A DNA stretch of 55,159 bases, counting the filler, from Basidiobolus ranarum (taxonomy: Eukaryota): the NCBI GenBank assembly GCA_040143965.1. It is 3 parts of 3 records of this genome, joined end to end, with 100 filler letters (N's around TTAATTAATTAA, not from the genome) between each part and the next. Parts side by side here need not be neighbours in the genome. Positions count along the whole stretch, not along the records: positions 1 to 18,380 come from JASJQH010007153.1; 2 more parts are not named here. One strand, written 5' to 3'. Under the pieces are notes generated by a model, which ran no database searches, was not told where the DNA came from, and saw only the letters and a program-made list of their open reading frames with translations. This document shows, piece after piece, positions 14,428-47,698 of this stretch (within the stretch, counting starts at the first letter, position 1; each line of letters opens with the position of its first letter). The translations under genes were made by a program, and so were the position numbers.

Positions 14428-15378
14428 TCAGAGCCCAATAGAATAAACCTTCTCTAGGCTTTGCTTTTGAATGGCCACGTCACAAAACCTAACACAAAGA
14501 AGTTTAGTAAGGTTCGCTAGAAACACCATAAAAGCATTCTACAACATACTGTTTAAGACGCTCATTTTCGGCACCCATATGTTCAAGTTGGGCGATCAGA
14601 GCGATCTGAATGTTCTTCAAATGCTGTAGGTATTGAACAGCTATAACCAAGGAAGGAATATGTTATTAAAATGACACTAGCAACCCGACAGAAGAGATCA
14701 AACGTACTTTTATAAAGGATGGCCGCTTTACTAATTTTCTTGTTACTGCAATTTGGTAAATGACATTTTAACTCCTCAAATCCATCTTTTATCTGTGCTC
14801 TTCGTTTCTGTTCTGATTGAATATGTATTTGCCGTCTGATTTCCGCATTAGACAATCCACCTGACGAACCAGAATTTAGGATACTACATCCGAAAATCCT
14901 TTAGCTATGGAACAGCACTGACAATAATCTCATATCTATGCTTACCTGGACTGCTCACTTGCTGATAGTTCATCCGTTACTTCTTGGTAATCCTCAGGAT
15001 CACTCCGTTTCCGTTTCGTGGGTGGACCATTGGACAGCTGATCCAAAATCTCCTGCGAGTATTCAGGAAAGTCCGATAGAAACGTCTCAGAGGCGGTAGA
15101 TGATTCAGGAGAAGCCTCTGGCAATGATACATAGCCCATGTCCGCTGGAAAGAACTCAGCCGGAAGGGATAATGGATCAAAAGTGAATCCTGGAACTTCA
15201 GTGGAATATTGTTCTGTGAGAAGTTAGTATTACTGCATTAAGATAGAGATAAGCATAGAATATGACAAAGCCCACAAAACCCACCTGAATAAACTAATGA
15301 TTCCATAGTTTGCTTCGTCTTGCCGATGTCATAAGGAAAGTAAAACAGTTGTTCATCTTCATAAGCACGAAGCGACAT
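14428..15378 (-). CDS. bHLH-leucine zipper transcription factor (Max/Mlx-like), multi-exon
   Basis: RRQIHIQSEQKRRAQIKDGFEELK...SKAAILYK, spliced to TVQYLQHLK...LEHMGAENERLK (zipper). NLS-like KRKR. Confidence 0.82.
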
Positions 15379-16150
15379 AGTATGAACTTCAAAAGGTACA
15401 GGGAGGGTATTTGAGATGATTGCTGTTAACGGAAAGAGACTCTGGATATAAAAAGTGACTAATTGCTCCCACAAATGGCTACTTGGGAGAGGTTAGAAAT
15501 AGAAAGACTTGGATGTAGATCTCTTGATTCAATTCTCAAGTGTGAATATTTATAGTATACTCCAGCTCACATCTCACCTCACATCCCACTATTGATGAAC
15601 TGATCTCCCACATTTCAACACGTTCAAGTACTCCTGAAATACCCCTAGTTTACTGCTGCAACTGAAGCTTTTGTTACTTTGAATTCATGGACTTTGCATA
15701 GAAATATCAGTTGTTTATGCCACACGACGTTCCAAACTGTATATATCAGCTGCTTGTTTACGAATCTCAGGCAAACACTAGTTTGAGAACACGTCTCAAC
15801 GATCCCATTGATCAACCTAACCCATTTATAGGCCTAAAAAGACTCATGTAGATCCTCCCAGTTACTATTATACAAGCTGTTGATGTAAATCTGGGCAAAC
15901 TCCGCATCCTAATTTGGCATCAAACAGGGATATGTCAACTCATTATTCTCTACTGAATAATTGTTTGTTAATATTAGAACGCAGCTCAGGGGAAGTATGC
16001 AAAATGCAACAACTGATGTAACGAAAACGATGCTTTTTTGGAATTCAAATCTTTTTTATTTTACATTATTAAACTGTGTATGCCTAAAATCAATGTATGG
16101 TTAATAATTGTTTTGGTTAAAACTGGAAATTATCCAAAATTATCAAGATT

Positions 16151-16226
16151 TGACCTCAGAGATCTTGGTGATAATAAAGAAATCCACATATAGATTCAGG
16201 GTAGCGAATTTTTTTAATCATCGATC
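16151..16226 (-). ncRNA. Box C/D snoRNA U24/snR24-like, copy 1
   Basis: C box AUGAUUA, D' CUGA, C'-like AUGUGGA, and D guide UUAUCACCAAGAUCU-CUGA matching yeast snR24 as recalled. Flanking inverted repeat at 16139-16240. Confidence 0.88.
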
Positions 16227-16387
16227 ATAATCTTGATAATTTGGTTGAGGATTTGGTTACTTACGTCGTATATACAACTGACAGGGGCGCGAGCAGTTTA
16301 GTGCGTGTCATACTATTAATAATACTGGTGAAATGGGTAAGTGAAATGGGTTAGGTTATGAATAAACGATGAAGCTATGTCAAGATT

Positions 16388-16463
16388 AGACCTCAGAGAT
16401 CTTGGTGATAATATAGGATCCACATGATTATTCAGGGAAGCGAAATGTTTTAATCATTGGTCT
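16388..16463 (-). ncRNA. Box C/D snoRNA U24/snR24-like, copy 2
   Basis: Same boxes and D guide as copy 1, with a terminal stem. D' guide is CAUUUCGCUUCC. Confidence 0.88.
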
Positions 16464-16628
16464 TCTCTTGGCTAACTTCACGTTCATAAATGAATCATTA
16501 CTTACCATGTTAATTTACAGTCGGTGTGGGCAATCCTTTTTCTAGAGAAGGCACTAGGGAAGGCACATAAACTAAAGGTTGATTAGTGAATGGTTCAATG
16601 AAGTGTGAATTCAAAGAAATAGTATTGG

Positions 16629-16732
16629 ATCTTCAGTAAAAATGTGGTCTCATTCGAGCAAAACCGCATGTGACGTCCGGCAAGACGTCGCGGAAGTTTG
16701 CCTTTCAAACGCAAATTACACCATCACGAGAA
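16629..16732 (-). ncRNA. Box C/D snoRNA U16/snR87-like, copy 1
   Basis: C box GUGAUGG; guide GUAAUUUGCG complementary to 18S CGCAAAUUAC; D' UUGA; long internal hairpin; ends UUUUUACUGA. Confidence 0.85.
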
Positions 16733-16857
16733 CAGACAGAGGGGCGAAGTAAATATCAAGATAACTTACCATAATGTGTTTGCAACTCTGTGTGGAGAGC
16801 AAAGCTTGCTGAGAGGTGCTTCTACATTATTCAAATTCTAAACGTATTTATTGAAAA

Positions 16858-16871
16858 CCTTAGACATGGGT
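16858..16871 (-). promoter_or_regulatory. Conserved upstream element ACCCATGTYTAAGG of the snoRNA host genes (second copy at 18367-18380)
   Basis: 13/14 identical between the two host copies, in otherwise diverged flanks upstream of the first donor site. Confidence 0.4.
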
Positions 16872-17253
16872 CATACATTCAATCAACCAATTATGCTCCG
16901 AAGAATATCATGGAATTTCTTTTTTTCCTCATCCAATTGGATTACGCTGGAATTGTTATTATCAGGAAATGTTTTTCAACGTTGGTTTTCAATGAATTGT
17001 GCCTGTATGGTTTTCGCTAGTTTATATCCTTCTATTATTGTCAGTGAGAATGTTAAATCTGGTTGATGTAAATTCGTGGTAAATGTACTAAGGGAATTTC
17101 AGTGACAATGAATCATTGTATACGGTGATTTATATCTGTTGTATCGGATGTTTGAAAGTCATTAAGGTTTAAATGTCGTCTCAATCGCACCTATTGCGTG
17201 GTGTGTTGTGATTTCTTCACTTAACACTAACACTAACTCCCCTCTCTTCAAAC

Positions 17254-17756
17254 ATGTGGCTTTTAACCACCCTAATCTATGTCACAACCATAGTTATAAC
17301 TACGGTGATTGGAGGTATAGTTATCAATTACATTGATTTAGTGAACGCAATAGTAATGGAAACATATTCTCAGATCAAATTACCATTGCCAATCCTCTAC
17401 CTTACTCCGTGATTGTAGCGAGTCGACCATTTAATATCACATTAGAATTAGAGGTATCTGGAGGTTTACACACTCCCAAAATTCAATTAGATATCTTAAC
17501 TAAAGATGGTAAGGAGCTATATACAAAAATCCACCAATTTACCGGTCCAGAGTTACTTGAAAAACCAGGTAATGTTGAATGGGCTTTCCCAATTGAAAGC
17601 CCTGAAGAACACTACACCATTCGAGCTTCTGGGGATGCTGAGTACACTAGTGAGTCACAAGTGGTTAAGGTCCACATGGAACGTCAAATCAGGGTATTTG
17701 TTCAACGACCGTTGAGTAAACCTAGCTATAAACTAAATTTGAAACGATCGAGATGA
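17254..17756 (+). CDS. Small secreted protein of about 147 aa, unknown function
   Basis: Hydrophobic N-terminal exon 17254-17314 (MWLLTTLIYVTTIVITTVIG), intron to 17373, in frame with ORF 17409-17756. AATAAA at about 17785. Confidence 0.7.
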
Positions 17757-17937
17757 TTCTTTTGCCACGTAAAAAATATATACCAATAAACTTTTCGTTC
17801 TTAAAATAGTTTTATTTTCATGAATTATGTACAATTGAAATTTGCATGATTTCGCTTCAAATACCCTAATAATAGTAGTGTGATATTAGTAGATGTTTCC
17901 AAAATTATGGAGAAATGTTGAAAGAAATATCAAGATG

Positions 17938-18013
17938 AGATCTCAGAGATCTTGGTGATAATATAGAGATCCACATGTGCATTCAGGGAAGCGAAATGTT
18001 TTAATCATTGGCC
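17938..18013 (-). ncRNA. Box C/D snoRNA U24/snR24-like, copy 3
   Basis: Same boxes and guides as copy 2, with terminal stem CAAGAUGAG/CUCAUCUUG (17931-18021). Confidence 0.88.
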
Positions 18014-18171
18014 TCATCTTGTGACTTCACGTTTGTATAGATATGACGAATACATACCAGGCAAATTTACAGTTGGTCCGGATTTACGGAACAGCTTCCT
18101 AAACAGTAAAGCTAAAGATACTATTAGCTTATGGTTTGGAGATTTAAAGCGATGTAAAGATATGGTATTAA

Positions 18172-18275
18172 ATCTTCAGTAAAAATGTGGTCTCATTTGA
18201 GCAAACCCGCATGTGACATCCGGCAAGACGTCGCGGAAATTTGCCTTTCAAACGCAAATTACACCATCATAAGAA
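18172..18275 (-). ncRNA. Box C/D snoRNA U16/snR87-like, copy 2
   Basis: Near-identical to 16629-16732, with C box AUGAUGG. The substitutions are compatible with the internal hairpin. Confidence 0.85.
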
Positions 18276-18380
18276 ATTAAGAATATCAAAATATAGAGAA
18301 GTGGACTTACCATGACCAAAATTGATAATGATTATTCATCATTTTTCGAGACTCTTTTATACTTATCCTTAAACATGGGT

Positions 18381-18480
18381 NNNNNNNNNNNNNNNNNNNN
18401 NNNNNNNNNNNNNNNNNNNNNNNNTTAATTAATTAANNNNNNNNNNNNNNNNNNNNNNNNNNNNNNNNNNNNNNNNNNNN
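18381..18480. other. Assembly gap (N-run with TTAATTAATTAA linker)
   Basis: Same 100-nt spacer as at 36801-36900; the linker puts stops in all frames. Confidence 0.95.
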
Positions 18481-19338
18481 GTAAGAAATTAGAAACAACA
18501 GTTGGTCAACTTTCTCATATCTATCAGTAACATTCAGTTGACTATAGATGGAGACGAAAGGTAACTCACCTCTTCTCACTTTACAATGGCCTACTTGAGT
18601 ACAATTTCAATAGATTTTTATGGAATTAATGGGAGAATTAGTCAAATTAGATTTCTTCAGCCATTCGAAATGTGCTTCTCATTACCAATGGATGTGTTAG
18701 TTTGTATTTGATAAATCTCCTTAAGTAATAAACTCCGTAACAATCAACTTGTCGCTAATTAATCTACCCTATCCTCCCTTGGTTGTTTCGGAAAACAAGT
18801 CTTGCTTAAACCATGAAATCACTTTATCCTTCGTCAGATGTGGATGTGGATGTGGATATAGATGTTGACATATGTGGACTATAAACGCCTGCTGTCAATT
18901 GAAAATCTCTTGAATTTCTATTTGCATGAATGAACCAGATAGCTTATTGGCCTTGATGAAATCAATTATTCTATTTTGTTTAGACTGTTAGGGATTAGGG
19001 AGATGAGTAGGGGCAAACAAAGTCTATCCAAGCGAAAAAAAACCCTCCACTGCATAAGCTTACCAATAGAACCATGTGATTCCATTCGATTATTTATTAA
19101 GTGATTCATTCCAATGAGTCATCAGTATATGCGCCTATATATATACATGAAAGTTGATGGATAGATTAGTAATTCTTGCTTTTGATTTGTTCATCATGAA
19201 ACACAATATATATATATAGAATCAAGAAAGGAAAATTGTGGAATATTGTGCTTTACAGTGTGATCATAATAATACATTCAAAATAGATGCGAGGCTAGTT
19301 GAATCAAATTGAATAGTAGTAGTGAAGTGAAGTCAAAT

Positions 19339-22300
19339 TCAATGAGTTTCCATCCTCCACTCCAAAATAATAGAGGAGATTAGATAAGCAACAAAATTAA
19401 AAATCAGCATAATTCCTAAAGACAATGGGAGTCGGAACTTGTAATAGAATGCAAGTAATACCCCACTAAGAATTACCACACTGAACAACAAAAATCCAAA
19501 TCCTAACCAAATCGTTGGTGAGATAGGCGGAAGGGAGATGGTGGCCATGGACAGACTGGCCCCTGCTGGTCTGGACTGGAAACATCCGATCAGTAGAGTG
19601 ATTCCTAACGTCAACAATAGATTTTGTATAGGTCCAGCCCAAACCGCTGTAAATGCAACTCTAAAGAATCCTGCTCTTGCCATGGAAACATCCGCAAAAA
19701 AATCTCCCAAAGAGTTTCCCCATGCCAGCACAGTTAGCCCAATAATGGCCTTTGAAAGCGACAATATCGTGCCAAGAGAGGCTAACAATGCAACTATCTC
19801 GTTAGATACAACATATATCCATAGAATAGACATTGCGAATGTGATAAACGCGCAGAGTAACTCGTATAAGTACAAAACTGTGGCGATTTTGATGGAGCGG
19901 AGTGGAACATGGCATGGGTTGGATTCAGAGTAAACACCTTTACAGTATGCCATCAGAAGAAATTTTAGGTATCTAGCTATGTTTCTTTCGTCAGTAGAAA
20001 GTGATATAGGCTCTCCATTTGAGCTGGTGTTTAGTGAAGGCGAATATAATGTAGCGGATGAGGGGGTGGGCGAACTATTTAATCGGGGGCTTAATAAGGA
20101 TTTGGCGTCCAGATATCCCGCAAACCCACTCCCAAAGTCTGTTGCAATGGTTGAAATAGGGTAGGTAACGACACATCCAAGGATAATCAGCAAAGCCGCT
20201 ATTATAAGCAAGGCAAGTCGACCTGTAGCCTGGGGGTTGAATCCTGTTAAATAAATTACCAGTAAAATGGCGGTGATTGGATATATAGTGGATAGTATAC
20301 GGTATTTCAAGAACCGATGGACTGGGACGTGTGTTAAGTGGTAAATAAATCGAATCATTGCCTTACGAGGTAAAGGCCACCACCATGGGGCCTTTCTAAT
20401 ATTTTCTGACATGGCTCCGTTGTCCAAAGAGCGAATGGCAGAATTACTTGTGGAGTTGGTCATGAAAATCGAGTTAACCAACTCTGGAGATGGTTGAATA
20501 TTAGAGGCATCGGAGGCATTGCTACTTTGCACTCCGCCTGACATGAACGATCTTTGAGAGGCGGACGGACGGACACATCTGATGGAATCTTTTCGTCCCA
20601 TACATCTCGTATAGGTGTTGGATGTTGATGGAACAACAACATTAGAGTCAGAGCTAGGGACAGTCAACAATTTATTTTGACGAGATGGAAGGTGTATGTG
20701 TTCTTCCGAGTTTTTGGTGCTTTCTGAACCCAAAGTTACCGACTGTTTTTCGTGCTCTACGATATGGCACCCGCACGCGTATCGGATCATGTTAGAGTTA
20801 AGGATGTCTTCAGCGTATTCTTCCGGAATTTGTGTATTCATGGCAATTTCTTCAAGATTATCCTCATCCTCCTCACGTATATCATCATCCACCTCACTAA
20901 TCATGTCGGAAAGAAACGGAGGCATTGACAAACATATCAAACACCGAATGGGGATCATGAAGATCCAGAAGAGAGTACAGAAAGCCTCAACACCTACTTT
21001 GATCCATTGGATTGCGGATGTTGGTTTAGTGACGCGGCAGCGATCCTTGATGGCGTTGACGATGTCACTATCCTCATAAAAATGTAGCTTCATTAAACTG
21101 AAGATATTGTAGGACGTGTTCCTCTGCTGAGTCTCCTCTTTTTCTACATAAAATTCGGAATTCTTATCATTAGTGTCTGTCGAGTCACAGTTCTCCTCAG
21201 AAACAACAACTGTGGGAACTGCTCTGTCCTGGGTACTCGCCGGCTCTCCAAATCGAGTGGTATTGATTGGATCAGGTTTGTTTGCTCTTAATAGATAGTT
21301 TCGTTGGTGATGATTGGTTCCGGCAAATGCACCACTAATAAGAGGTTAATTAAACATTCATGTTAATAGATAATGGAAACATTAATCAACTGACCTTTCA
21401 TCTGTGATTTGGGGATTTGCATTATCAGCATCAGTCACAACCAGCTTGGGAATTGTGAGACCTAGTACATTTGAATACTCGTCGGTAGTGGGCGAGGAAG
21501 CGGGTTTAACACCAGAGAGCGTTGTGGAATTTGTACGAGGCGTGCCGTTCTGTGCATCCAAATTTGACGGAACCGACTCGAACGAGTTACCGTGATTATT
21601 TGATATTGGTTCGAGAGCGAGCTGCTGGGATCTGGTGTTTCCCTCTCTCTTCTTTCTGAGTGCTCGTTTAAGGTAAAAATGTCTACCAATAAAGAACGCC
21701 AGAAAGAAGATATAGTACAATAGTAGAATGACAGGCTCAAACCAGTGAACCGTTCCATCATCAAAAATCACAATCAAGATGATGACTGCAATCGTATAGA
21801 TTGTCATATTACGAAGATGTGAGAATTTGTCTATAGCGATACCACGAAACTCCACCACAAGATTCGGAAAAGAGTATTGTTTGGGGGCTTTGAGACGAAG
21901 GGCCCGTGTTATAGACTGTAATCTTCTCCTCAATCTCACGAAAGACTCTGGGTTACTCACAGATGGACGTCTCTCCAGCTCAGCACCCAAGGGCTCCACG
22001 TGCTGTGTTTCCGTATGGGTATTTTGAGGCAAAGTTATCATGGTATTTTTATGTCGATAATAGGAGGCTATAATGATACTTCCTAAAACAACGTTAAGGA
22101 TAAACATACCACTTCCTACCGTCGCACCAAAAATTAGATCAAAATCCCCAGAGCTCACTCCGGCAAATGCCGTGAACAAGTCTGGAGCACCGTTACCAAA
22201 AGAGAGTAGTGTTAGACCGGCAACTTCGCTACTGAGTCTGAGGTGATCGGATATGCTTTGGAGTGCAGTGGTAAGATGAACATCACTAACTCTGAAAAGA

Positions 22301-22575
22301 GCATAGAAGTAAGCTATTGTTAAGAACACAGCTAGTACAAAAAACCAGCCGACATTTTGGGAAGATATTCTGCAATAACGAAGTTCCAAATAATTAATAA
22401 GCCCTGCTTCATCTCCACAATATGCACGTACGAATGCACAAGGATCTGCATGTGCACTTGGACGTGTACATTTCGTATTTGTGTCATCAGAATCCTGTGC
22501 ATTTGCGAAGCTAATCAACAGTAAAAGTATTATGGGGATGAGAGAACTTAACCGAGGCCGGGTAAAGGGCTTCAT
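19339..22575 (-). CDS. Cation/Ca2+ exchanger (CCX/NCLX/Ecm27-like), one intron at 21394-21335
   Basis: Alpha-1 repeat AGLTLLSFGNGAPD and alpha-2 repeat GLTVLAWGNSLGD. Signal peptide and 'CAFVRAYC...GLINYLELRYC'. Splicing joins the two ORFs in frame. Confidence 0.9.
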
Positions 22576-25025
22576 TATGTTGCCAAGGGGAACCGTTACT
22601 TGTTCGCAATATACGGTGTAAGTAAGGCTAAGTGATAAGCCAATTTCTCAATGAGGGGTAGCCTTCAGATGAAGCATTCCTTTTATGTAACTTCTGATGG
22701 GGTGAGCCCTATGACTAAGAATTCTTTTAGACTTTGAGTAAAATGTCCACTTGATTGCTGATTGAAGGAGAGCTTAGTGCGGAAAGCTAGTGGCATACTA
22801 AAACCCTGGCTGAAATACAAATAACTGAATGAAACTCGTCTCCGTATTCGTCTATTCAATGTTCTAAACGATGTATGCACCTAAATTGAATACCCATCGT
22901 AGTATAAAGCTTGAATAGACGGTGTGACGAATCAGGTGCTCCAAGACCTTCATTTCCGCAGAATAAGAAATCATCGAAAACTGACTGTTTGGCATGTCTC
23001 TACAAACACAATATGGAACACGTGCTCTCGGGACGACTGATCCTTAGATGTACAAGATCAGTTGAGCACCTAATATGGATTCCACGAACTCTATTTGATT
23101 TCCCAACTGAGAGGAGACAATACTCTTCTATTAATTATGCGTCAGACCTAGACCTTGCTTCAGATCAGACCCATGCCTTACCGACATATGATTTTATTTC
23201 CTTTTATGGGAAGGGTCCCCTTCGCCCCTGGTTCCTCAATCATCTGATCCCTAGCAATTGCCATTCGCCAACCAGGGCTGGTGTAGAGAGTACAATATGA
23301 AGTGTGTGATTCAGATGGACAATCCATCGGCTACTGTAGATCAGCTAAACTGGAAAAAACCGGGCCCTGAAACAGAACTCAACTAAATAGTCTCTGACAC
23401 AGGTTGCAAACTACCAAAGAAAGAGAAATTGGCACAAGACTGTTGAGGATTTCTCAAACGTATTCCTCTGTCCACTAGCAGCAGTTGGGTGAACAGGTTT
23501 TTGCTTGGCTATCTCTTACGATACTTGGGTTTTGCTTTAGAACTGGCCACCCCTATACCATTGTCATTGGTTCACAATGGAGCCAGAATGGAAGATGGCC
23601 GTTTTGGTGTCTGCATTAGAAAGCCAAGAAGCGTAGTATGAGTCCAAAAATAAACTGCCCTCCATCAAGGCACATCTATATATATCGACCTGCTGTCAGA
23701 TCATGACACAAGACCATGTGATTGCTCTGTCGGATAATTAGACATTAATCTGAATATTGACAGGCAAGTTTTAGCATGTGGTGCTAGCTAATATGTGGAT
23801 TAATGTAGAATATTGGTGCGCAAGCTGTGCTCACTCCAATCTGATACGCAAGGGAACTTCCCTCTTCCGTTTCTTGATTGATGAGGCAAGTGGTGTTTCA
23901 TTCAGTAATGACATACCAGACAAACACAGAGAATCTCCATGCTGATTCTTATATTCAAACTGGTGTACTGCATATATCTATACTGCACAAAGCCAACCTT
24001 GCAGCGGGTCTGTCTTGCTATTCATTGCTATATTGAGAGTATTCTAATGATATACCAGCCAGACTGAATATGAGTAATGTGTCCAGGATCAGTCCCTGGA
24101 AGTCTCTTATTGAAGCGCAATTCCTCTTTGTAGGATGATCTTATTCACTAGTAAGCTTACTTTCGACCTCAAACAACTTGGCTTGGGAGATTTCCTTCTT
24201 AATTTCTTAGCAACCATATAGAAGATCAACATACTTCCAACTCCACCCAAGGCCTCTTTCCCCATCATCCCACCCAATCTGACAGGGTGTTCAGTCTTGA
24301 TCTCACTAAGATCCTCCTTTCATCTATCCATCTTGAATCACCCAGCTGGGTAATAATGATAGTATACAGTTGTATGAAATCTAGCATGACAATAAACCAT
24401 GCTTGTTTAGGAGCCTGGGAATGGTTCTAAATCATTCAACACATTCTGTGCCTTCACCGCGTTTAATCAAGCTCTCTAAAGGGACATTTATTTCTCACGA
24501 CTTATCAATCAAACTATTGATGAAAATACCTAAAGGAAACGCTAGTGAGCCATCCACTGTCTGTTCACGAGCTGGTTCATATTTCCATAAGTGAAGAAAT
24601 GAGTTCTCAAGACTTTGGTGGAATATTAAAATTCTATTCTAGTTGAGAACACTACGTTACATCACATTGCAGACCCAAGTCACTTTTGAGCTGATAAATG
24701 CATTTGAGTTCAGGATCAACATACACCATTCCCCTCTCCAACTGTACACACGCAACTTGAAGGGAAAACTGAACATTTGCGGTAAGCAATATACAGATTG
24801 GCTCAGTCATGGAATCAATGTTTATTGTACCACTGGGACTCTTTAGTCGTCAAATTACATTACACGCAACTTTATTTGGCTCGGCATAAAGGGTGCAAAT
24901 AAGTGGGTCCGTAGATCCCAACGAAGGTATCTTTACTGGAGTGAAACTAAAAGAGTAGTGAGACCTATATACGGCTCCACGGTATACAGAAATTAGAGTT
25001 TAAAAGTGGAAATAAACGTCGTAAA

Positions 25026-36800: not shown

Positions 36801-36900
36801 NNNNNNNNNNNNNNNNNNNNNNNNNNNNNNNNNNNNNNNNNNNNTTAATTAATTAANNNNNNNNNNNNNNNNNNNNNNNNNNNNNNNNNNNNNNNNNNNN
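36801..36900. other. Assembly gap (N-run with TTAATTAATTAA linker)
   Basis: N-run. Confidence 0.95.
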
Positions 36901-37497: not shown

Positions 37498-39878
37498 TCA
37501 GATGTGTTGAGAGAATGGATTCGCTATGCTGGGATTCAATCCAAAGGAGAATAATGGTTGGGGAATCTGTGGATCATATTCCATTAGGTTGTTGCCAGAT
37601 AATATCTCAAATAACCCAAAGTTGTTGTTATTACATTGAAATTGTGAGGTGTCCATTTGCGGCGTTGCAGCGTAAGGCGCTCGGATATTAACATCATAGT
37701 TCAACATGCAATCCCTCTGGGCATTACTCACCATTTGGAAGTTGAAATCAGGCTGTTGCGGGTCCAGTGTGGGGAGTTCTACTAGTGATGGTATTAATAC
37801 AGTTGGAGATGGTGTGAAATGTTGGGGCTCTGAGAGTGGCACGCCAGGTGAACTTGCTTTGGTTTCGTTCAGTTGCAGTTCTGTCCGGTTGGTAGAAACT
37901 TCTTTAAAGGGAAGAATGGTTTCATTTATAGGTCGGCACCTTGCCCCTTGTTTCTCGTAAAGTATCTTCAACACATGGCAGTATTTTCCGGATATGGGTA
38001 ATACTTTCGATAAACTTTGAAGTGCCCAATAATGTAAAGCAAAATCGGTTTTGGCAATGACTTGTTCCCATGGCATGGAGAGTACAGACCAAAGGTGGAC
38101 AGTACTTGCAGTAAAGATGCAAAAAGGAATAAACCCATCAAAATATCCAAAATCGGTCAGAGTGACATCGCTCACAATACGAGAGATGGCATTGGCAGCC
38201 GCAAAGCATCGTCGCAAGGAAGGAGTCCATAAGTTCGAGACTGGTACTACATCTTCTACATTCGGATTTCGAAGATTAATTCTATGCAGAATGATCACAC
38301 ATGTATGATATATGGTGTGAAGACTTCGGATGGTCAAGTAGTCCCTATACCTCTTCTTCTTGAAGTTTTTGGGTGCAATGTATTGATATTGAGCGGGAAG
38401 TGAAGTTGCCCACGCTTGGAGTTCGTTATCTAGCTTGACAAATTTGGGGCATACTTGATAGCTAAATTCCTGGCGTTTTGCTTTAGGTTGATTTATGTAT
38501 CGTGTAATCTTTCCAAGAATTGTAATCAACACAATATAGACCGCCGAGATACTACAGGAAGCATCGAGGTATAATGTTGATGTAGAGGGGAAAAGAGATT
38601 CCGATAACCCAGCATCGACATCCTCAATTTGAAGCATTTGACTGGGTGACGGTATACCACTCTCCCAAGCTTCAATAGACACAGGGAGTAATATGTGGCA
38701 ATCCCTCTCATCTATCATAAGAGGCCTCCCTGTAAGGCTTGCACCATACCTATCCATCATATAACATGTCCACCAAATCCTTCTTCGTGTCTCTCGTTCA
38801 ATCCACTGTTCAGGAGAAATCACCTCATTTCCACTATTCTCGTCAATTCGGTTGATACCCAATGCTTGCGCAATCCTTCAAATGGAATTAAATAAGAGGT
38901 TAGTCCACTGACGATGGGTTTATGAGATTATTAATAAGCATTACCTAATAGCGAGTGCTGAGATTATAACACGTTACAAATAGAAAGCAAAATTTAGCCC
39001 ATGAACTTGGTATTATTTTAACACGAGATAAACTAACCTGGAAAAATCCACGAACTAGGACTACGACCAAACTCGAAGCAGGTTATAATGATCAGGGCCT
39101 GTATAGTGGAAATGTCGAGTTGATTGGTAACCGGTAGAAGCTCCTTAACTTTACTAGCATACATGTCGCAAGTGGATGCGCTAAATTGAGACGATTGTTT
39201 CTCCGAGTCATCGGTATGAATTATGGAAGAAGAGAGTGCATACATAGAGTACAACAAGATTTTAGATACTCGATTATTTTTAAGTGCTTTTAGGAACGTG
39301 GGGCGATGAACAACTGCTATAGTGTTGTTTGCTCGCTCAAAATAAGCATCAATCAGGTACTTGGATTCTTTGGGAGAGAGAGATAACTCATCAGTCGAAG
39401 ATTCAAATACGGTTGTGGATTCGCTCGATGGACTAGTATTTATAATCTGAGGAGGAAAGTCCTTGATATCAAGAATGCCTGAAGTGTTCCCAAAGTATAA
39501 TTTTATCGGAGTGTCCTGAATGCTCTCCTCTTGAGGACTTGGCTTAGGCGAAGAATCAGTGGAAGTAGAATTGTAATTCGGGTTTAACAGTTCACTATAA
39601 TCAGGAAGCTCTAAGGTGTCTTGGGAATGTTTTGTCAAGTTTAGTGGAGCGTGTTTTAAACGCTGCTCCAATAACTCAATTTTTCTCTCCAAACTCTCTA
39701 TATATTGCTTTTGTGGATTACGCTTTTTGGCCGTAGGAACGTATACACAATCATTACCCAAGCGTAGGCAATTCGAACAGGTTGGTCTTTTGCTATCACA
39801 TTTGACTTTTTTCCTGCGACATATTATACATGCTTGTCCAAACTTCCTGCGTTTAGTAGGATCATTTGTATCGCTCAT
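37498..39878 (-). CDS. Zn(II)2Cys6 transcription factor with fungal-specific TF domain
   Basis: ACIICRRKKVKCDSKRPTCSNCLRLGNDC, VHRPTF and ETRRRIWWTCYMMDR. Includes a predicted 13-nt micro-exon at 38957-38945. Confidence 0.93.
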
Positions 39879-40672
39879 TTGTAGTGAGTAGGGGACAGAA
39901 TAGCTACGTTATATATACAATGTATATTTGATTGTTAAATACAATAGTAGAACAAAGATGTGCTCGAAAAAGGGAAGAAAAGAAATTCGGATATGTTGAC
40001 TCGGATTAAAAGTAAGTGTCACTCACTTTGTTAACAATTTGATATATACGATTTTACAGGCGAAAAGTCAGCACTTGATGTATAAAATTATACAGGAGTG
40101 GATTCAATCAATTGTAAAATGTGACAAATCATGATCGGCAGATATTAGGGCTAAGCTATGAATAACAATACCAAGATATTTCTAAATATAAGTCTCATCT
40201 GACATTGCGGATTGATACGAAACCGTATTTCTCCGAATCATCTAACATTAATTCTATAACTAGAAATTCATTTACAATCATGCTTGTACCGAGTCAAACT
40301 TTGGTTCAGGGCTTTACGCTATAGCGCTCTGACGGATCTGGCTGAGGAATACAAATCAAAAAGCAATTTTGGTTCAAGTTGAGCCATATTTTGCGATATT
40401 AATTAGCCACTTGAATGAAGATCTCCCCATAATTTCTTCTACATAATCACCATACTTTACTCGAGAAATCAGTCGCGTTTAGTCGGGATTTTTCAAAGGA
40501 GACTACAATGAAACTTAAACTTCCAAATCTCTTTTGTGATTAATTTATTCCTGGTCTTCGTGTGATGGTTTTCTTTTTAGTCACAAAACAACGCTTTTCT
40601 AGAATAGTAAAGTTTTTGGCTTTTGTGGTGTTATTTTCTTCTTAATTATATTTAATTTTTACTACTTCATTA

Positions 40673-42720: not shown

Positions 42721-45193
42721 ACATGTCGCCAGCTAGCAGCCACTTTTGATTGGCATTGATTTCGTATTCCATGAAGCTAGATGCAACGGAAACTGGTTTA
42801 TCCTTCACTTGGTTATTTATAGAGAGACCCTAATAAAGATGTGTAATCTCAATAAACCTCTGCATACTGAATTGTCAGCAGATATGCTCTGATCACCAAG
42901 CAAGGTTATCAATTAGTATTCAATTTGTAGCCTTCTTTGGAATAGTGACCACACAGCTACATATGTACGATATTTGAACCTTATTTCAATGCCACATCAC
43001 AATCACCCAACTTTCACCTGAATCGGCCCAAATTGAGTTGCTATCCTACATCACAGTAACAGCGACTAAATCTGAAGTAGCCACTATTTGTGCTTGTGGT
43101 GGAGTCTGTTTTGTGGCATATTTAGTAGCATCAACACCAGTAATTGCACGAGTTGTTTGTATGGAGATTCGTTCGATTACAAATCCGATTGGAATCCATA
43201 GTACACCAACAGGAACCGAAATCACTCACCTAACCCACTTAAAACCAATGAAACCCCAATTTGTTTCTCATTTGCTCCACTCTTACAAAGTGGAATCAGA
43301 CCTGGTGGCTCATTAGTCACCTCCTGTTCGGATTGGTACTTACGAAACCTTGGAAGAAGTACAATGGGAAGTGTGGCTTCCATATCATCAGTGCATGGAT
43401 GTTTTGGGTGTGTTGGCCACACTCTCATGGTCGATAGTCGTTGAAAGGGTCTGGGAAAGACCGCAAAAAACGCAGCAGCGTGATCTTGTGTAGCATCCAT
43501 CTAATGCAGGAATTTAAAAGCGAGAAAAATCCAGTGAATTTCATTTAAATATGCAACCTTGAGTCACTCAGTGGTATATTTATCACACTGCCTTCGATAA
43601 CTGGCGCATGTTCTGCTACAACTGCCAACTACTGTCCAGGCTGCAGCTAATAGTGTAGTCAATATTGGTTAATTGAAGTAGTCGTTAGAAAAGAGATAGA
43701 AATCGCTCTGCAGTTTCATCGAGCATTTCATCTATTACTAGCACTATTGCTCGCTTTAGGAATGTGCTACTATGAGATATCATAACCCCTTCCTAATATG
43801 GGGCACCTAATGAACCATGGCCCAATAGCTCTTGCAGCCAATGTTGGAAGGCAGACAACAGGTTAACAAACAAGATTTTGGTATACAAGAAGGGATCATC
43901 TTCTCTGCAGTGGCTGACACGATGAGGCTGCCCAAGATTTATGATGCTCATTAAAGATACCGCCCCAGCTCCTTTCTGGCTGAAAAGCAACGATAACTAC
44001 CTGTTGCTCAAAGCACTGATTTGGAAATGCTGTCTAATCTGTCGCTGTATTAATTTCAGCAGTCCCGGTGGGCTCTAAGCATTGGCCTATACCTCAACCT
44101 GAGTGCCAACATTCCCACACTTCAATGCAGCATCGCTTGCAACGCCCGCGATCATCATCGAAGTTGACCATATGGAATTACATAATAGTAATTACCTCAT
44201 CCACAAGGATCAATGCCTTGAATTGAATCACCGATGATTCTGGTGAACAGTTTGTCAATTGGAGGTTGCAAACAGGTGGTCAAGAAACAACGACACTGGC
44301 ACCTGATTTTTGCAGTGAATCTGTACCATACTTCAACGTTTCCGTCTCAATTTGTGCCTCAACTCAAGTCATACTTTCCCATCAGTGTGCTACTATGGTA
44401 TTAGGTTCCATCTCTAATGAATGGCAGCCTTAGATTAATTGCCAATGAGAATGCGGATTCTTGATTCTCTTGCACAGGTTCAACATTTCAGTAACGGGGG
44501 TTTCTGGAGTGATTGGAATCAGCAAAGATCCCACCTTCACGCTGCCTGTGTTGCTTATTGGACAGTGTTCGCCTCGCAGCCAAGTCGCTACGGTAATTCG
44601 AGCTAAGCTACTCGCTTAACACACCACATGTGTCTTAATTATTTTGATTGTTGCCCAATAATGTGAAACCTTAGAGTATATATGTGAGCGGGGTTTCGGC
44701 TTCGGCTTCGGCCATGAGCTTAATATTGATCTTCATATTCTAAATTATATTGATTTAAGGTCTTGATCTGAACGAGTCCAATCACGATTGTATATTGATC
44801 ATCAGAGCGTTGCAGACAGGTTTTGAATCAACAGATCCTTTTATCACTTCTGTTTCAAGCCACACGCTGTTCATTTTGGGCCGATTGATTCAAACGATGG
44901 GCCCAATAAAAACTAGCAAGTCACACAAAATAGGTTTTCTTGTTGTTAGTGTTGTTACATGCATAAATCTATTGTTGTAAGTTCTGGCTACTCCGAGATT
45001 TAGTATATAAGCATCTTCATCTTGTGTAAGGAGTTTGATTTTAATGTCATTTTGGTTTCATACACGATCTTATTCTCTGATTGACCAGTCGTACCTTTCA
45101 CATATTTGATACTACAACGTAGACTTATTGGATCTTCTTTCACCTCGCGTAGTCCGACAAACTTATCACATCAATCTTTTCAAGTTATTGTTA

Positions 45194-47698
45194 TGGATCA
45201 CTCGGATGGCTCGAAGCCTGTGAAACGAAAACGTCTCACTCAAGCTTGCGACACTTGTAGAAAAAAGAAAGTCAAGTGTGATGGAAACCATCCAAGCTGC
45301 TCTAATTGTATTCGTTTGAATGTATCTTGCGCTTATCTTCCGAGTTTCAAAAAAAGGGGACCACGTCAAGGGCCTCCAGTTGTTGAAGAGAAGCTTACTG
45401 GTAGTAGCGTGGAATTTTTTCGGCGCCTCTCAGCCCCCGGCTCTACTCAGTACAGCAAAATAAACCAACAGTCATCGTCGTCGTCTAGCATACCAAATTT
45501 CAATCCCAGTTTAATCTCTATTCCTGCCCTTCCGGCTGTTCCTCCTAATTTCTTTAGTAATTTCTCCCACATTCCTATCCCTTCTTTTGATGCTGGAGGT
45601 ACTCCATTTTTTGGAAACATTGGTGCACATATGCCACCTCCTTATCCAACAAATTGTCAAGGTAAAGACCTAGAAGTCGAAGAGGAAGAGGAAGAAATAG
45701 GAGATCCTTTAGAGAAAGAGGTAGCCGTTAGAGAAAAAGTAGAACAAGTATGGCCCCAATCATATTTGGGAAATACATCTGGACTTCATCTGCTTACCGC
45801 TAGTGGAGGAAGTGAAAAGAGCCCATCGCCTAAAAGTGAATCAGAAAGCCTATGCTTAATTGGAGCCGATTCTTTACCACCACCACAGATAACTGAGCAT
45901 CTAGCCAATATATATTTTGATGTCATCTACCCACAAATGCCCTTTATCCATCGCCCTACTTTTTTCAAAAGGCTGAAAAATAAGGAGATCCCACCTATTT
46001 TAATATTAAGCATATGTGCCTGTGTATCTCGACTGGCAACACATCCAGCTGGACTTGTTGATGATGCTCCCAGAGGCGGTGAAATATTTTCCGAACGATT
46101 TCGGAATATCTTAGTCCTTTGCTTGGATGATCCTTGTCTATCAACCACACAAGCGCTTCTTATTTTTTCGTATTTTGAATACACCAACGCTCGGATTTCC
46201 AGGGCTTGGATGTATTTAGGGATGGCTGTTCGGTGAGTATTCTATTTTCGTTGAAGTTTTCATGTATCATATACTTAATTTTGCCACTTTTAGGATGGCA
46301 CAAGAACTGGGAATCAATAGACTTGATGAAAGGGGCTCTTTTGATGATCAAAGTCCAAGTGAATGGATAGAGGCGGAGACTCGAAGACGGGTCTGGTGGT
46401 CTTGTTTCATTCGTGATCGTTTGGGTAGCAGTAGTACTGGCAGATCGATGGCAATCGATGAACAAGATACTAGAGTATTACTCCCTTGTGATGAAAGCGA
46501 CTTTAATAATGAAAATCCAGTCGAGTCCGAGCTACTAGATATTTCTGATAACGCTACTCATGTATATCCGGCACCACCGAGTGGAAATACTACTAAGAGA
46601 GAAAAATGTATCGGCTATCGTGCGCATTGGGTTAGGCTAGTGGCGTTGTTAGGAAGGGTGTCGCAGTTCGTCAATAGTCCAAAATTCCGTAAGGCTCGTT
46701 CAAGTACTGAGACTTTAGCAAAATTTGCTTCTTTAGAAAGCAGTTTGGCTATATGGGCAAAAACTCTGCCTTCACAATTCAGATATCCTTGTAAGCTTGT
46801 GGATGAAGTATCGCCCAATGGATATTCCCGAGCTGCTTTCATCACATGTATTCATATTTTATACCACACCGCTATAATCTTGCTTTATCGCTCTAATCTT
46901 GATTTGAACATGCTACACGCGAATGACGACCCTACCAATTCACTGGTTGCTGATTCTTGGAAAAGGTGTATCAGCTCCGCAAATCAGATCATTGCAATCA
47001 TCCCAGAATTTTATACTTTCCCGCCTTGCTACAATTATCCTCACGTATGTTTCGGTATATTTACCGCGGGAACAATATACATGCATTCGCTTTTTTCCCC
47101 GAATATATCTACTGTTGTAGAAGAAACCAGAAGTAAGCTTGAACACACGTACAACACACTACTTATGCTAAAAAAAGAGTGGCTTATGGCTGGAAAATAT
47201 TGTGTATTGCTCAAAGGCTTGGTGTCTATTCGTGGCCGTGTTCTTGCGCAAAGAAATAGTGATAAAGCAGAAGCAAGTGAGCTGGAGAGCCTATCACCAT
47301 TGACTCCAGAATTTGTGTCGAAAGGAAGCGACTTCAGCGGTGTCATGACTAAAATAGGGCTTGAGAATTCCAAACCTATGGGGCTTGACTCCACTCACGT
47401 GCCGCTTCAAATAGATGACAACTCTCTGAATCTCTTTGACGGATTCCAGAATCTCACTGATATGCCATTTAGCCAAGGAACATTATTTTTTGATGGGCTT
47501 CTAAGTAATGCATATTTAAATTCCTGTACTGATATTCCGACGAATATTGAGCCGTCATCCCTAGAGCTAAGTGAAATCGGGGGTATACCGGGAAATTCTA
47601 CAGAGGACAATCAGAGTTCATTCTTCCAATACATGGCGGTTGATTCTCAAGGAATTGACGGAGGATGGTTGAGTAACTTAACCAGCGACATGTTCTAA
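45194..47698 (+). CDS. Zn(II)2Cys6 transcription factor with fungal-specific TF domain, one intron at about 46233-46293
   Basis: ACDTCRKKKVKCDGNHPSCSNCIRLNVSC, IHRPTF, WMYLGMAVR|MAQELG and ETRRRVWWSCFIRDR. Confidence 0.93.

Follow-up and report, generated by a model that had tools for sequence, protein, structure and literature searches.

The window analyzed here is a stretch of 55,159 bases (G+C content 38.7%) from Basidiobolus ranarum, which is an early-diverging fungus of the Zoopagomycota, and it consists of 3 assembly pieces strung together. At the right-hand end of the first piece, the minus strand carries 2 paralogous loci that are probably non-coding host genes of the UHG/GAS5 type for intron-encoded small nucleolar RNAs (snoRNAs): host A with 3 introns and host B with 2, each intron containing one box C/D snoRNA. 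The vertebrate UHG (SNHG1) and GAS5 genes are non-coding, have multiple introns with one snoRNA per intron, and have poorly conserved exons. An initial annotation of this DNA had already proposed dedicated non-coding hosts, and this reading is supported by the Rfam matches, by the presence of one snoRNA per intron, and by the diverged exons, which are poor in open reading frames (ORFs).

We scanned the whole window on both strands with the Rfam models, at the gathering thresholds and then with the threshold relaxed to E ≤ 0.1. The curated cut-offs are 41 bits for SNORD24 (RF00069), 45 bits for SNORD16 (RF00138), and 39 bits for Afu_514 (RF01515). At the gathering thresholds 2 matches were obtained in the window, both with SNORD24, and at E ≤ 0.1 there were exactly 5, all within the 2 hosts; no further Rfam match at E ≤ 0.1 was detected on either strand of the 55-kb window. 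The 5 minus-strand box C/D cassettes described in the initial annotation were all located at their positions, and their proposed U24-like and U16-like identities were borne out by matches with SNORD24 (3 cassettes) and with SNORD16/snR87 (2 cassettes), 2 of the 5 scoring above the gathering threshold:

16630-16731, minus strand: U16/snR87-like snoRNA, copy A, 102 nucleotides (nt); SNORD16 31.8 bits, Afu_514 20.7 bits
16389-16462, minus strand: U24-like snoRNA, copy A1, 74 nt; SNORD24 47.4 bits, above the cut-off
16152-16226, minus strand: U24-like snoRNA, copy A2, 75 nt; SNORD24 44.2 bits, above the cut-off
18173-18274, minus strand: U16/snR87-like snoRNA, copy B, 102 nt; SNORD16 34.9 bits, Afu_514 24.5 bits
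17939-18013, minus strand: U24-like snoRNA, copy B, 75 nt; SNORD24 36.4 bits, below the cut-off

The 3 sub-threshold cassettes are clear paralogs of each other or of the 2 cassettes that pass.

At the sequence level, each of the 5 cassettes lies alone between canonical donor and acceptor signals, which are present at the places proposed in the initial annotation for all 5 introns:

16572-16769, minus strand: host A intron 1, 198 nt, running from a GTAAGT donor to a TAG acceptor; branch A (in CTAAT) at 16583
16278-16505, minus strand: host A intron 2, 228 nt in the model of the initial annotation; alternative acceptors at 16325 (CAG) and 16313 (TAG)
16084-16264, minus strand: host A intron 3, 181 nt, running from a GTAAGT donor to a TAG acceptor; branch A (in TTAAC) at 16101
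18112-18310, minus strand: host B intron 1, 199 nt, running from a GTAAGT donor to a TAG acceptor; branch A (in CTAAT) at 18124
17866-18057, minus strand: host B intron 2, 192 nt, running from a GTATGT donor to a TAG acceptor; branch A (in CTAAT) at 17886

The GTAAGT or GTATGT hexamer begins 38, 43, 38, 36, and 44 nt before the first snoRNA base in the 5 introns. Such strong donor hexamers occur 68 times in the window on both strands together, and one was present in a comparable 15-nt band at 0.9% of 200,000 random positions. Although this band was picked after the data had been seen, finding a donor in 5 of 5 introns against 0.9% at random is far beyond any reasonable correction. On the other side of the snoRNA, the A of a CTAAT or TTAAC branch motif lies 47, 51, 49, and 53 nt past the snoRNA end in 4 of the 5 introns, with an AG 11 to 20 nt beyond; a branch-like pentamer falls in a 17-nt band at 5.6% of random positions. 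The optimum given for splicing-coupled assembly of box C/D small nucleolar ribonucleoproteins (snoRNPs) is approximately 50 nt upstream of the branch point (PMC8162545).

The remaining intron, host A intron 2, offers several 3' ends. The acceptor chosen in the initial annotation, CAG at 16278, goes with a CTAAA motif located 91 nt past the snoRNA (A at 16298). Alternatively, a CTTAC motif has its A at 16338, at a distance of 51 nt from the snoRNA end, and the first downstream AG follows 13 nt on, at 16325; this acceptor would give an intron of 181 nt, the same length as intron 3, and an exon 3 of 60 nt. A canonical CTAAC is also present, its A (16351) being 38 nt past the snoRNA end, and the TAG at 16313 aligns with the acceptor of host B. 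By the spacing seen in the other introns, the acceptor at 16325 would suit this intron better than that at 16278, and it is possible that several of them are used alternatively, as has been reported for one Neurospora host (PMC2780460). Of the distances of about 50 to 90 nt that had been claimed between box D and the branch site, the lower end holds in 4 of 5 introns (47 to 53 nt), and 91 nt is the distance to the CTAAA motif of host A intron 2. Likewise, the exons are short as claimed, but the 13-nt exon is doubtful because the 16278 acceptor fits the spacing worst.

The splice model defines the following exons:

16770-16820, minus strand: host A exon 1; 3' end set by the donor, 5' end guessed from the TATA-like box
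16506-16571, minus strand: host A exon 2, 66 nt; identity with the second exon of host B 58% (shuffle mean 48%, maximum 58%)
16265-16324, minus strand: host A exon 3; 13 nt (16265-16277) with the acceptor at 16278, 48 to 60 nt with that at 16313 or 16325
16040-16083, minus strand: host A last exon; AATAAA at 16055-16060, putative 3' end
18311-18330, minus strand: host B exon 1, very short; 5' end guessed
18058-18111, minus strand: host B exon 2, 54 nt; read from the sequence by the splice model
17795-17865, minus strand: host B last exon; AATAAA at 17811-17816, putative 3' end

We aligned the 2 hosts segment by segment, against shuffled controls that gave mean identities of 45% to 54% and maxima of 53% to 63%. 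The U16-like snoRNAs are identical at 96 of 102 positions (94%) and the U24-like snoRNAs A1 and B at 69 of 75 (92%). Identity is 55%, 63%, 69%, and 66% in the 4 intron flanks, 49% in the upstream region plus exon 1, 58% in exon 2, and 41% in exon 3. The earlier observation that the cassettes are conserved and the exons diverged was thus reproduced (92% to 94% versus 41% to 58%), and from these alignments the exons appear to have drifted to about random while the snoRNAs held, which is the defining pattern of UHG/GAS5-type hosts. The coding capacity is small as well. The longest ORF in any of 4 splice models has 24 codons, and the first ORFs, which open at the end of exon 1, were confirmed to be short and unrelated: MFMCLP* in host A (6 codons) and MLYCLGSCSVNPDQL* in host B (15 codons). 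No conserved translated ORF was found in the 2 hosts. Separately, both hosts have an identical 10-nt block, ACTGTAAATT, toward the end of exon 2 on its 3' side (16512-16521 and 18064-18073, minus strand), which may be chance or a splicing element.

We also scanned metagenome sequences with a pattern consisting of the U16-like guide, 235 to 265 nt, TGAT, 35 to 65 nt, and the U24 guide plus box D. The scan returned a single locus, L001, on a 396-kb contig. The YIF1 gene neighboring this locus encodes a protein 95% identical to a Penicillium protein, which assigns L001 to the Eurotiales (Penicillium-like). Within positions 447-907, an snR87-like and then a U24 snoRNA lie in consecutive introns of an unannotated small host:

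483-587: Afu_514 snoRNA of L001; Rfam 95.7 bits
758-847: U24-like cassette of L001; SNORD24 26.2 bits, E 0.17

Several features go beyond what the pattern required: the snoRNAs are preceded by GTATGT donors at distances of 36 and 38 nt and followed, each after exactly 50 nt, by the branch motifs CTGAC and CTAAC, with acceptors 18 and 10 nt further on. Counting the window and L001 together, the branch A lies 47 to 53 nt after the snoRNA in 6 of 7 introns. The middle exon of L001 measures 64 nt, compared with 66 nt in host A and 54 nt in host B, and a hand reading of its first ORF gave 15 codons. In prokaryote genome contigs, the linked U16-guide/U24 pattern had 0 matches. A pattern for U24 alone had 4 matches in the same kind of contigs; none was SNORD24, the 2 that were read look coding by eye, and we regard all 4 as chance matches.

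The Afu_514 family is that of Afu-514 of Aspergillus fumigatus, an orphan snoRNA whose gene was described as a singleton in the intergenic stretch from Afu6g03830 to Afu6g03840 (Jochl et al. 2008, PMC2377427); the part of that description considered here mentions neither a host gene nor a neighboring U24. Afu-514 (RF01515) and the U16-like cassettes of the window share the antisense element beside box C, and a close Afu_514 homologue occupies the first snoRNA intron of the L001 host (95.7 bits), whereas the copies in the window reach just 20.7 to 24.5 bits. We tentatively raise the possibility, which we regard as open to considerable doubt, that the snR87/U16-like snoRNA followed by U24 constitutes an ancestral fungal host that predates the split of Zoopagomycota and Dikarya and was kept down to the Eurotiales. 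What stayed fixed may then be the architecture (approximately 36 to 44 nt from donor to snoRNA, approximately 50 nt from snoRNA to branch point, and a middle exon of approximately 54 to 66 nt), with the exon sequence drifting freely. If true, the snR87-U24 host would rank with the most ancient non-coding host loci conserved in fungi and would predate the snR72-78 cluster, which has been dated to the root of the Ascomycota (PMC5824354). It would be a dated case of a non-coding gene preserved by architecture and not by sequence, and it would change the reading of "intergenic orphan" fungal snoRNAs: those such as Afu-514 would sit in unannotated hosts.

Upstream of the first exons, both hosts have a TATA-like box preceded by a common element:

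16858-16871, minus strand: host A upstream motif ACCCATGTCTAAGG, 5 nt before the TATA-like box; putative function
16845-16852, minus strand: host A TATA-like box AATAAATA, read from the sequence; putative promoter role
18367-18380, minus strand: host B upstream motif ACCCATGTTTAAGG, abutting the contig end at 18380
18354-18361, minus strand: host B TATA-like box TATAAAAG, read from the sequence

In both hosts, the TATA-like box follows the 14-nt element ACCCATGTYTAAGG after exactly 5 nt, these 2 copies are the sole matches of the element in the window with up to 2 mismatches, and it is the only well-conserved block between the hosts outside the snoRNAs. We regard ACCCATGTYTAAGG as a candidate promoter element for snoRNA hosts in Basidiobolus; upstream of the L001 host, no element like it was seen. 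Both hosts end near an AATAAA signal as previously claimed, at 16055-16060 and 17811-17816. The presence of ACCCATGTYTAAGG and a TATA-like box before each host and of AATAAA after each last exon argues for 2 separate transcription units. It is improbable that the exons instead belong to a larger unit, with host A being the multi-intron 5' untranslated region (UTR) of the downstream bHLH gene, or with B and A forming one gene whose middle intron holds the gene at 17254-17756. The ORFs of the bHLH gene (14583-15139) lie on the same strand as host A, so that the hosts and this gene are all on the minus strand and in the right order, snoRNAs are common in UTR introns of coding genes, and the transcript ends assigned here derive from the AATAAA hexamers only. 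However, each host has its own TATA-like box with the identical 14-nt motif at the identical 5-nt spacing, no strong donor hexamer was seen past the last exon of A or B in an unscripted reading by eye, approximately 900 nt separate the last acceptor of host A from the bHLH ATG at 15139, and a comparable small host stands alone in L001.

The 3 U24 cassettes are bracketed by long intronic inverted repeats of -21.2, -15.9, and -17.8 kcal/mol (the last being that of copy B), values attained in 0, 0, and 1 of 300 shuffles, respectively. The flanks of the U16-like cassettes are without stems: their energies are -2.0 and -3.1 kcal/mol, and 189 and 100 of 300 shuffles, respectively, do at least as well. 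Box D of the U24-like cassettes is CUGA, and their own terminal stem of 4 base pairs (bp) is lengthened by these flanking stems, which would hold boxes C and D together and may compensate for the off-consensus U24 C box, AUGAUUA. In the mechanism that we propose for the 2 separate hosts, RNA polymerase II would transcribe each of them from the TATA-type promoter preceded by the common 14-nt element, and the core box C/D proteins would assemble on the nascent C/D kink-turn during intron splicing. Placement of the snoRNA approximately 50 nt before the branch point would aid this assembly and, for the U24 copies, so would the stem in the flanking intron. After splicing, the lariat would be debranched and exonucleases would trim it to the protected snoRNP, yielding mature products of approximately 102 nt (U16/snR87-like) and 74 to 75 nt (U24-like). 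The spliced exon RNA, of approximately 150 to 230 nt and with tiny ORFs only, would have no function of its own and would probably be short-lived.

We consider it very unlikely that the snoRNAs are released without splicing, from their own promoters or by endonucleolytic cuts at the flanking stems of a polycistron, and that the splice signals are vestigial. The long U24 flanking stems could serve as nuclease entry sites, and budding yeast makes most of its snoRNAs from independent genes or polycistronic clusters (PMC2780460). Release of this kind would, however, leave unexplained that strong donors are intact in 5 of 5 introns and branch sites at a splicing-favoring spacing in 4 of 5, and that these signals were kept in both paralogs although their surroundings fell to 55% to 69% identity, and in L001 too. 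Moreover, the U16-like cassettes are without flanking stems, and no TATA-like box was noticed by eye directly before single cassettes.

The guide elements were compared with known snoRNA families and with ribosomal RNA (rRNA). An identical element precedes box D in all 3 U24-like copies, and it pairs over 17 of 17 positions, 15 of them Watson-Crick and 2 of them G-U, with a fragment of eukaryotic large subunit (LSU) rRNA, the fifth pair falling on the C of AGAUC. This fragment is a 404-nt stretch from contig L004, derived from another eukaryote and not from Basidiobolus; it is one of 2 eukaryotic LSU fragments among 11 stretches found by scanning viral contigs for the LR7 primer. Primer scans with NS2 (18S) and ITS3 (5.8S) had 0 matches. 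As an observation apart, the 2 IMG/VR "viral" contigs L004 (4115-4503) and L006 (1-419) end in eukaryotic LSU rRNA, with 324.6 and 106 bits, and are probably chimeric or misclassified. Guiding of 2'-O-methylation at the C of the LSU AGAUC, the classical U24 site, would be the best explanation for the pairing of the U24-like snoRNAs, and we take this C to be position C1437 of yeast. The U24 target of Neurospora crassa is listed as 26S-Cm1418 (PMC2780460).

In the U16-like snoRNAs, the D' element GUAAUUUGCG lies directly after box C and is identical to the SNORD16 and Afu_514 consensuses and to the Afu_514 snoRNA of L001. The snR87 family is found in all fungal lineages except Microsporidia, and its D' guide targets 18S-436 (PMC5824354). 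For the U16/snR87-like snoRNAs, methylation of the A in the small subunit rRNA targeted by yeast snR87 (18S-436) would accordingly fit as the best explanation of the element. The guide elements of yeast snR87 and SNR24 (U24) and of human SNORD16 and SNORD24 are the same as those of the Basidiobolus copies. The D' element of the U24-like snoRNAs occurs in 2 versions, one shared by A1 and B and the other present in A2. That of A1 and B differs from the classical second guide and may have 9 nt of complementarity to a conserved stretch of 5.8S rRNA, which makes 5.8S a candidate target as a weaker lead; if true, it would be a new target for the U24 family.

Less probable still is that only one paralog is functional and that host B is a decaying partial copy. 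Its U24 snoRNA does not reach the Rfam cut-off, the terminal stem of this snoRNA contains a C-A mismatch, the third intron is missing from the host, and the locus sits at the contig edge. Decay would nevertheless be hard to reconcile with both guide elements of U16 B and U24 B being identical to their host A counterparts while neutral flanks diverged by 31% to 45%, with U16 B outscoring U16 A, and with U24 B keeping its flanking stem and intact splice signals. The least credible alternative is that the hosts are coding genes for functional micropeptides, with the snoRNAs as passengers, since the ATG at the very end of exon 1 in both hosts and the 15-codon ORF at the same position in L001 (hand reading) open peptides that share no sequence among A, B, and L001, exon identity is at shuffle level, and the overlap of ATG with the donor consensus (..ATG|GTAAGT) accounts for its recurrence there.

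Several observations weigh against the assignment of 2 non-coding snoRNA hosts or against parts of it. Of the snoRNA matches, 3 of 5 fall under the Rfam curated cut-offs and only 2 exceed them. The U24 C box is AUGAUUA and not RUGAUGA, the same departure being seen in L001, and the 4-bp terminal stem of U24 copy B contains the C-A mismatch. The acceptor of host A intron 2 is ambiguous, with 3 candidates (16325, 16313, and 16278), and AATAAA signals are weak evidence at a G+C content of 38.7%. The assembly joint cuts the 5' side of host B, so that its promoter is partly visible and its first exon would be very short: host B stops at 18380 against a linker of N residues and TTAATTAATTAA, and the sequence upstream of it is therefore missing. 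As to L001, its U24-like cassette scores just 26.2 bits (E 0.17), and because the pattern demanded the arrangement of U16 guide followed by U24, this locus shows the existence of the arrangement in a very distant fungus and not its frequency. Finally, when the U24 D' variants were compared with the 404-nt LSU fragment, no convincing partner was found, the best contiguous runs being 6 to 9 bp in implausible registers. U24/U24b of N. crassa and Schizosaccharomyces pombe are described as single-guide snoRNAs without the second, D' guide (PMC2780460), and thus this guide is not defining for the whole U24 family.

The copies also bear on the history of the locus. U24 A2 is 85.5% identical to A1 and 84% identical to B. 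Because A1 and B are closer to each other than A2 is to either, the U24 intron would have been duplicated within the host first and the host later, if rates were equal. The last exon of host B aligns with exon 3 of host A, which indicates that B lost the third intron or was copied without it, and the saturation of neutral sites implies that the duplication is old and that both copies were kept. The initial annotation had called this a tandem duplication: there are indeed 2 paralogous copies, but they are not adjacent, since a plus-strand gene (17254-17756) lies between them. Such an old paralog pair is a natural experiment in which everything was randomized except the snoRNAs, the splice signals, their spacing, and the 14-nt promoter element, and this marks what the host gene needs.

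As in mammalian UHG and GAS5, the intronic snoRNAs of the Basidiobolus hosts are conserved and the exons are not, and the spliced RNA would be exposed to decay through its short upstream ORFs. The mammalian genes differ in being 5'-terminal oligopyrimidine (TOP) genes with many more introns and other snoRNAs; a TOP start is not expected in a fungus. In yeast, U24 is located in an intron of ASC1 and snR87 stands alone, and in human, SNORD24 is in RPL7A and SNORD16 in RPL4, which are unlinked protein-coding hosts. Unlike in yeast and human, the U24 and U16/snR87 families share one non-coding host in Basidiobolus.

The novelty implied in the initial annotation was overstated, as hosts of this kind were described in N. 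crassa in 2009. There, 45 of 55 box C/D snoRNAs are intronic, and the hosts of clusters I-V, which contain ORFs of only 159 to 267 bp, are described as "most like the UHG gene" and were verified by RT-PCR (Liu et al. 2009, PMC2780460). Given this precedent, non-coding snoRNA hosts are a known kind of gene, fungi included. Like the Basidiobolus loci, the N. crassa clusters are fungal, have multiple introns with canonical splice sites and one box C/D snoRNA per intron, contain short ORFs, and were unannotated (PMC2780460), and the distances from donor to snoRNA are comparable, at 41 to 60 nt in N. crassa and 36 to 44 nt in the Basidiobolus hosts. As presented in the part of PMC2780460 considered here, the N. 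crassa clusters hold other snoRNA families, which are counterparts of yeast polycistronic clusters, U24 (CD50) is intergenic, U24b (CD51) is intronic, and no snR87 homologue is listed. In contrast to those hosts, known by RT-PCR (PMC2780460), the Basidiobolus hosts are known from sequence, are duplicated, and belong to a much earlier-diverging lineage.

A non-exhaustive literature search found no work on snoRNA hosts of Basidiobolus. By title and abstract, no snR87-U24 linkage was found either among the papers listed, with the proviso that the supplementary tables of PMC5824354 and PMC2780460 may list such loci, and a search for Afu_514 found no paper. The snR72-78 cluster is the only one taken up in the part of the fungal snoRNAome paper considered here (PMC5824354). 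Three details may be new: that UHG-like hosts occur in a fungus of the Zoopagomycota type, that the snR87/U16 family and U24 are combined in one host, and that the host is duplicated. The paired hosts do not overturn current understanding. They add 5 snoRNA genes and 2 non-coding hosts to a poorly annotated early-diverging fungus, in a stretch that ORF-based annotation would leave blank.

The gene located between the 2 hosts has the following structure:

17254-17756, plus strand: small two-exon gene; ATG at 17254, 59-nt intron at 17315-17373, stop at 17756, 148 amino acids

Its product has a hydrophobic N-terminus, it is single-copy in the window, and a Pfam search with its main ORF gave no match. 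It is oriented toward host B and away from host A, with which it has a divergent promoter region of approximately 400 nt in common. At 18381-18480 and 36801-36900, the pieces of the window are joined by a linker of 100 nt, the same both times (TTAATTAATTAA between 2 blocks of 44 N), and adjacency across these linkers is therefore not biological; host B touches the first joint, at 18380. Beyond it, 2 adjacent ORFs of 668 and 421 codons (stop to stop) at 19339-22647 (minus strand) each contain a Na_Ca_ex domain and are probably one intron-split cation/calcium exchanger gene, whose homologues in the protein database are distant only. Just downstream of this gene, an snR77-like box C/D match at 19120-19201 (minus strand; 23.1 bits, E 3.6) was rejected as being at chance level. 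A centractin fragment encoded in the window is 90% identical to the centractin of Basidiobolus ranarum, with the next best match at 78%. Besides centractin, the window encodes a mitochondrial carrier, the bHLH protein, and Zn2Cys6 "fungal-specific" transcription factors, the genes for the latter being located at 37498-39908 (minus strand) and 45085-47698 (plus strand), each in 2 ORFs that are presumably split by an intron.

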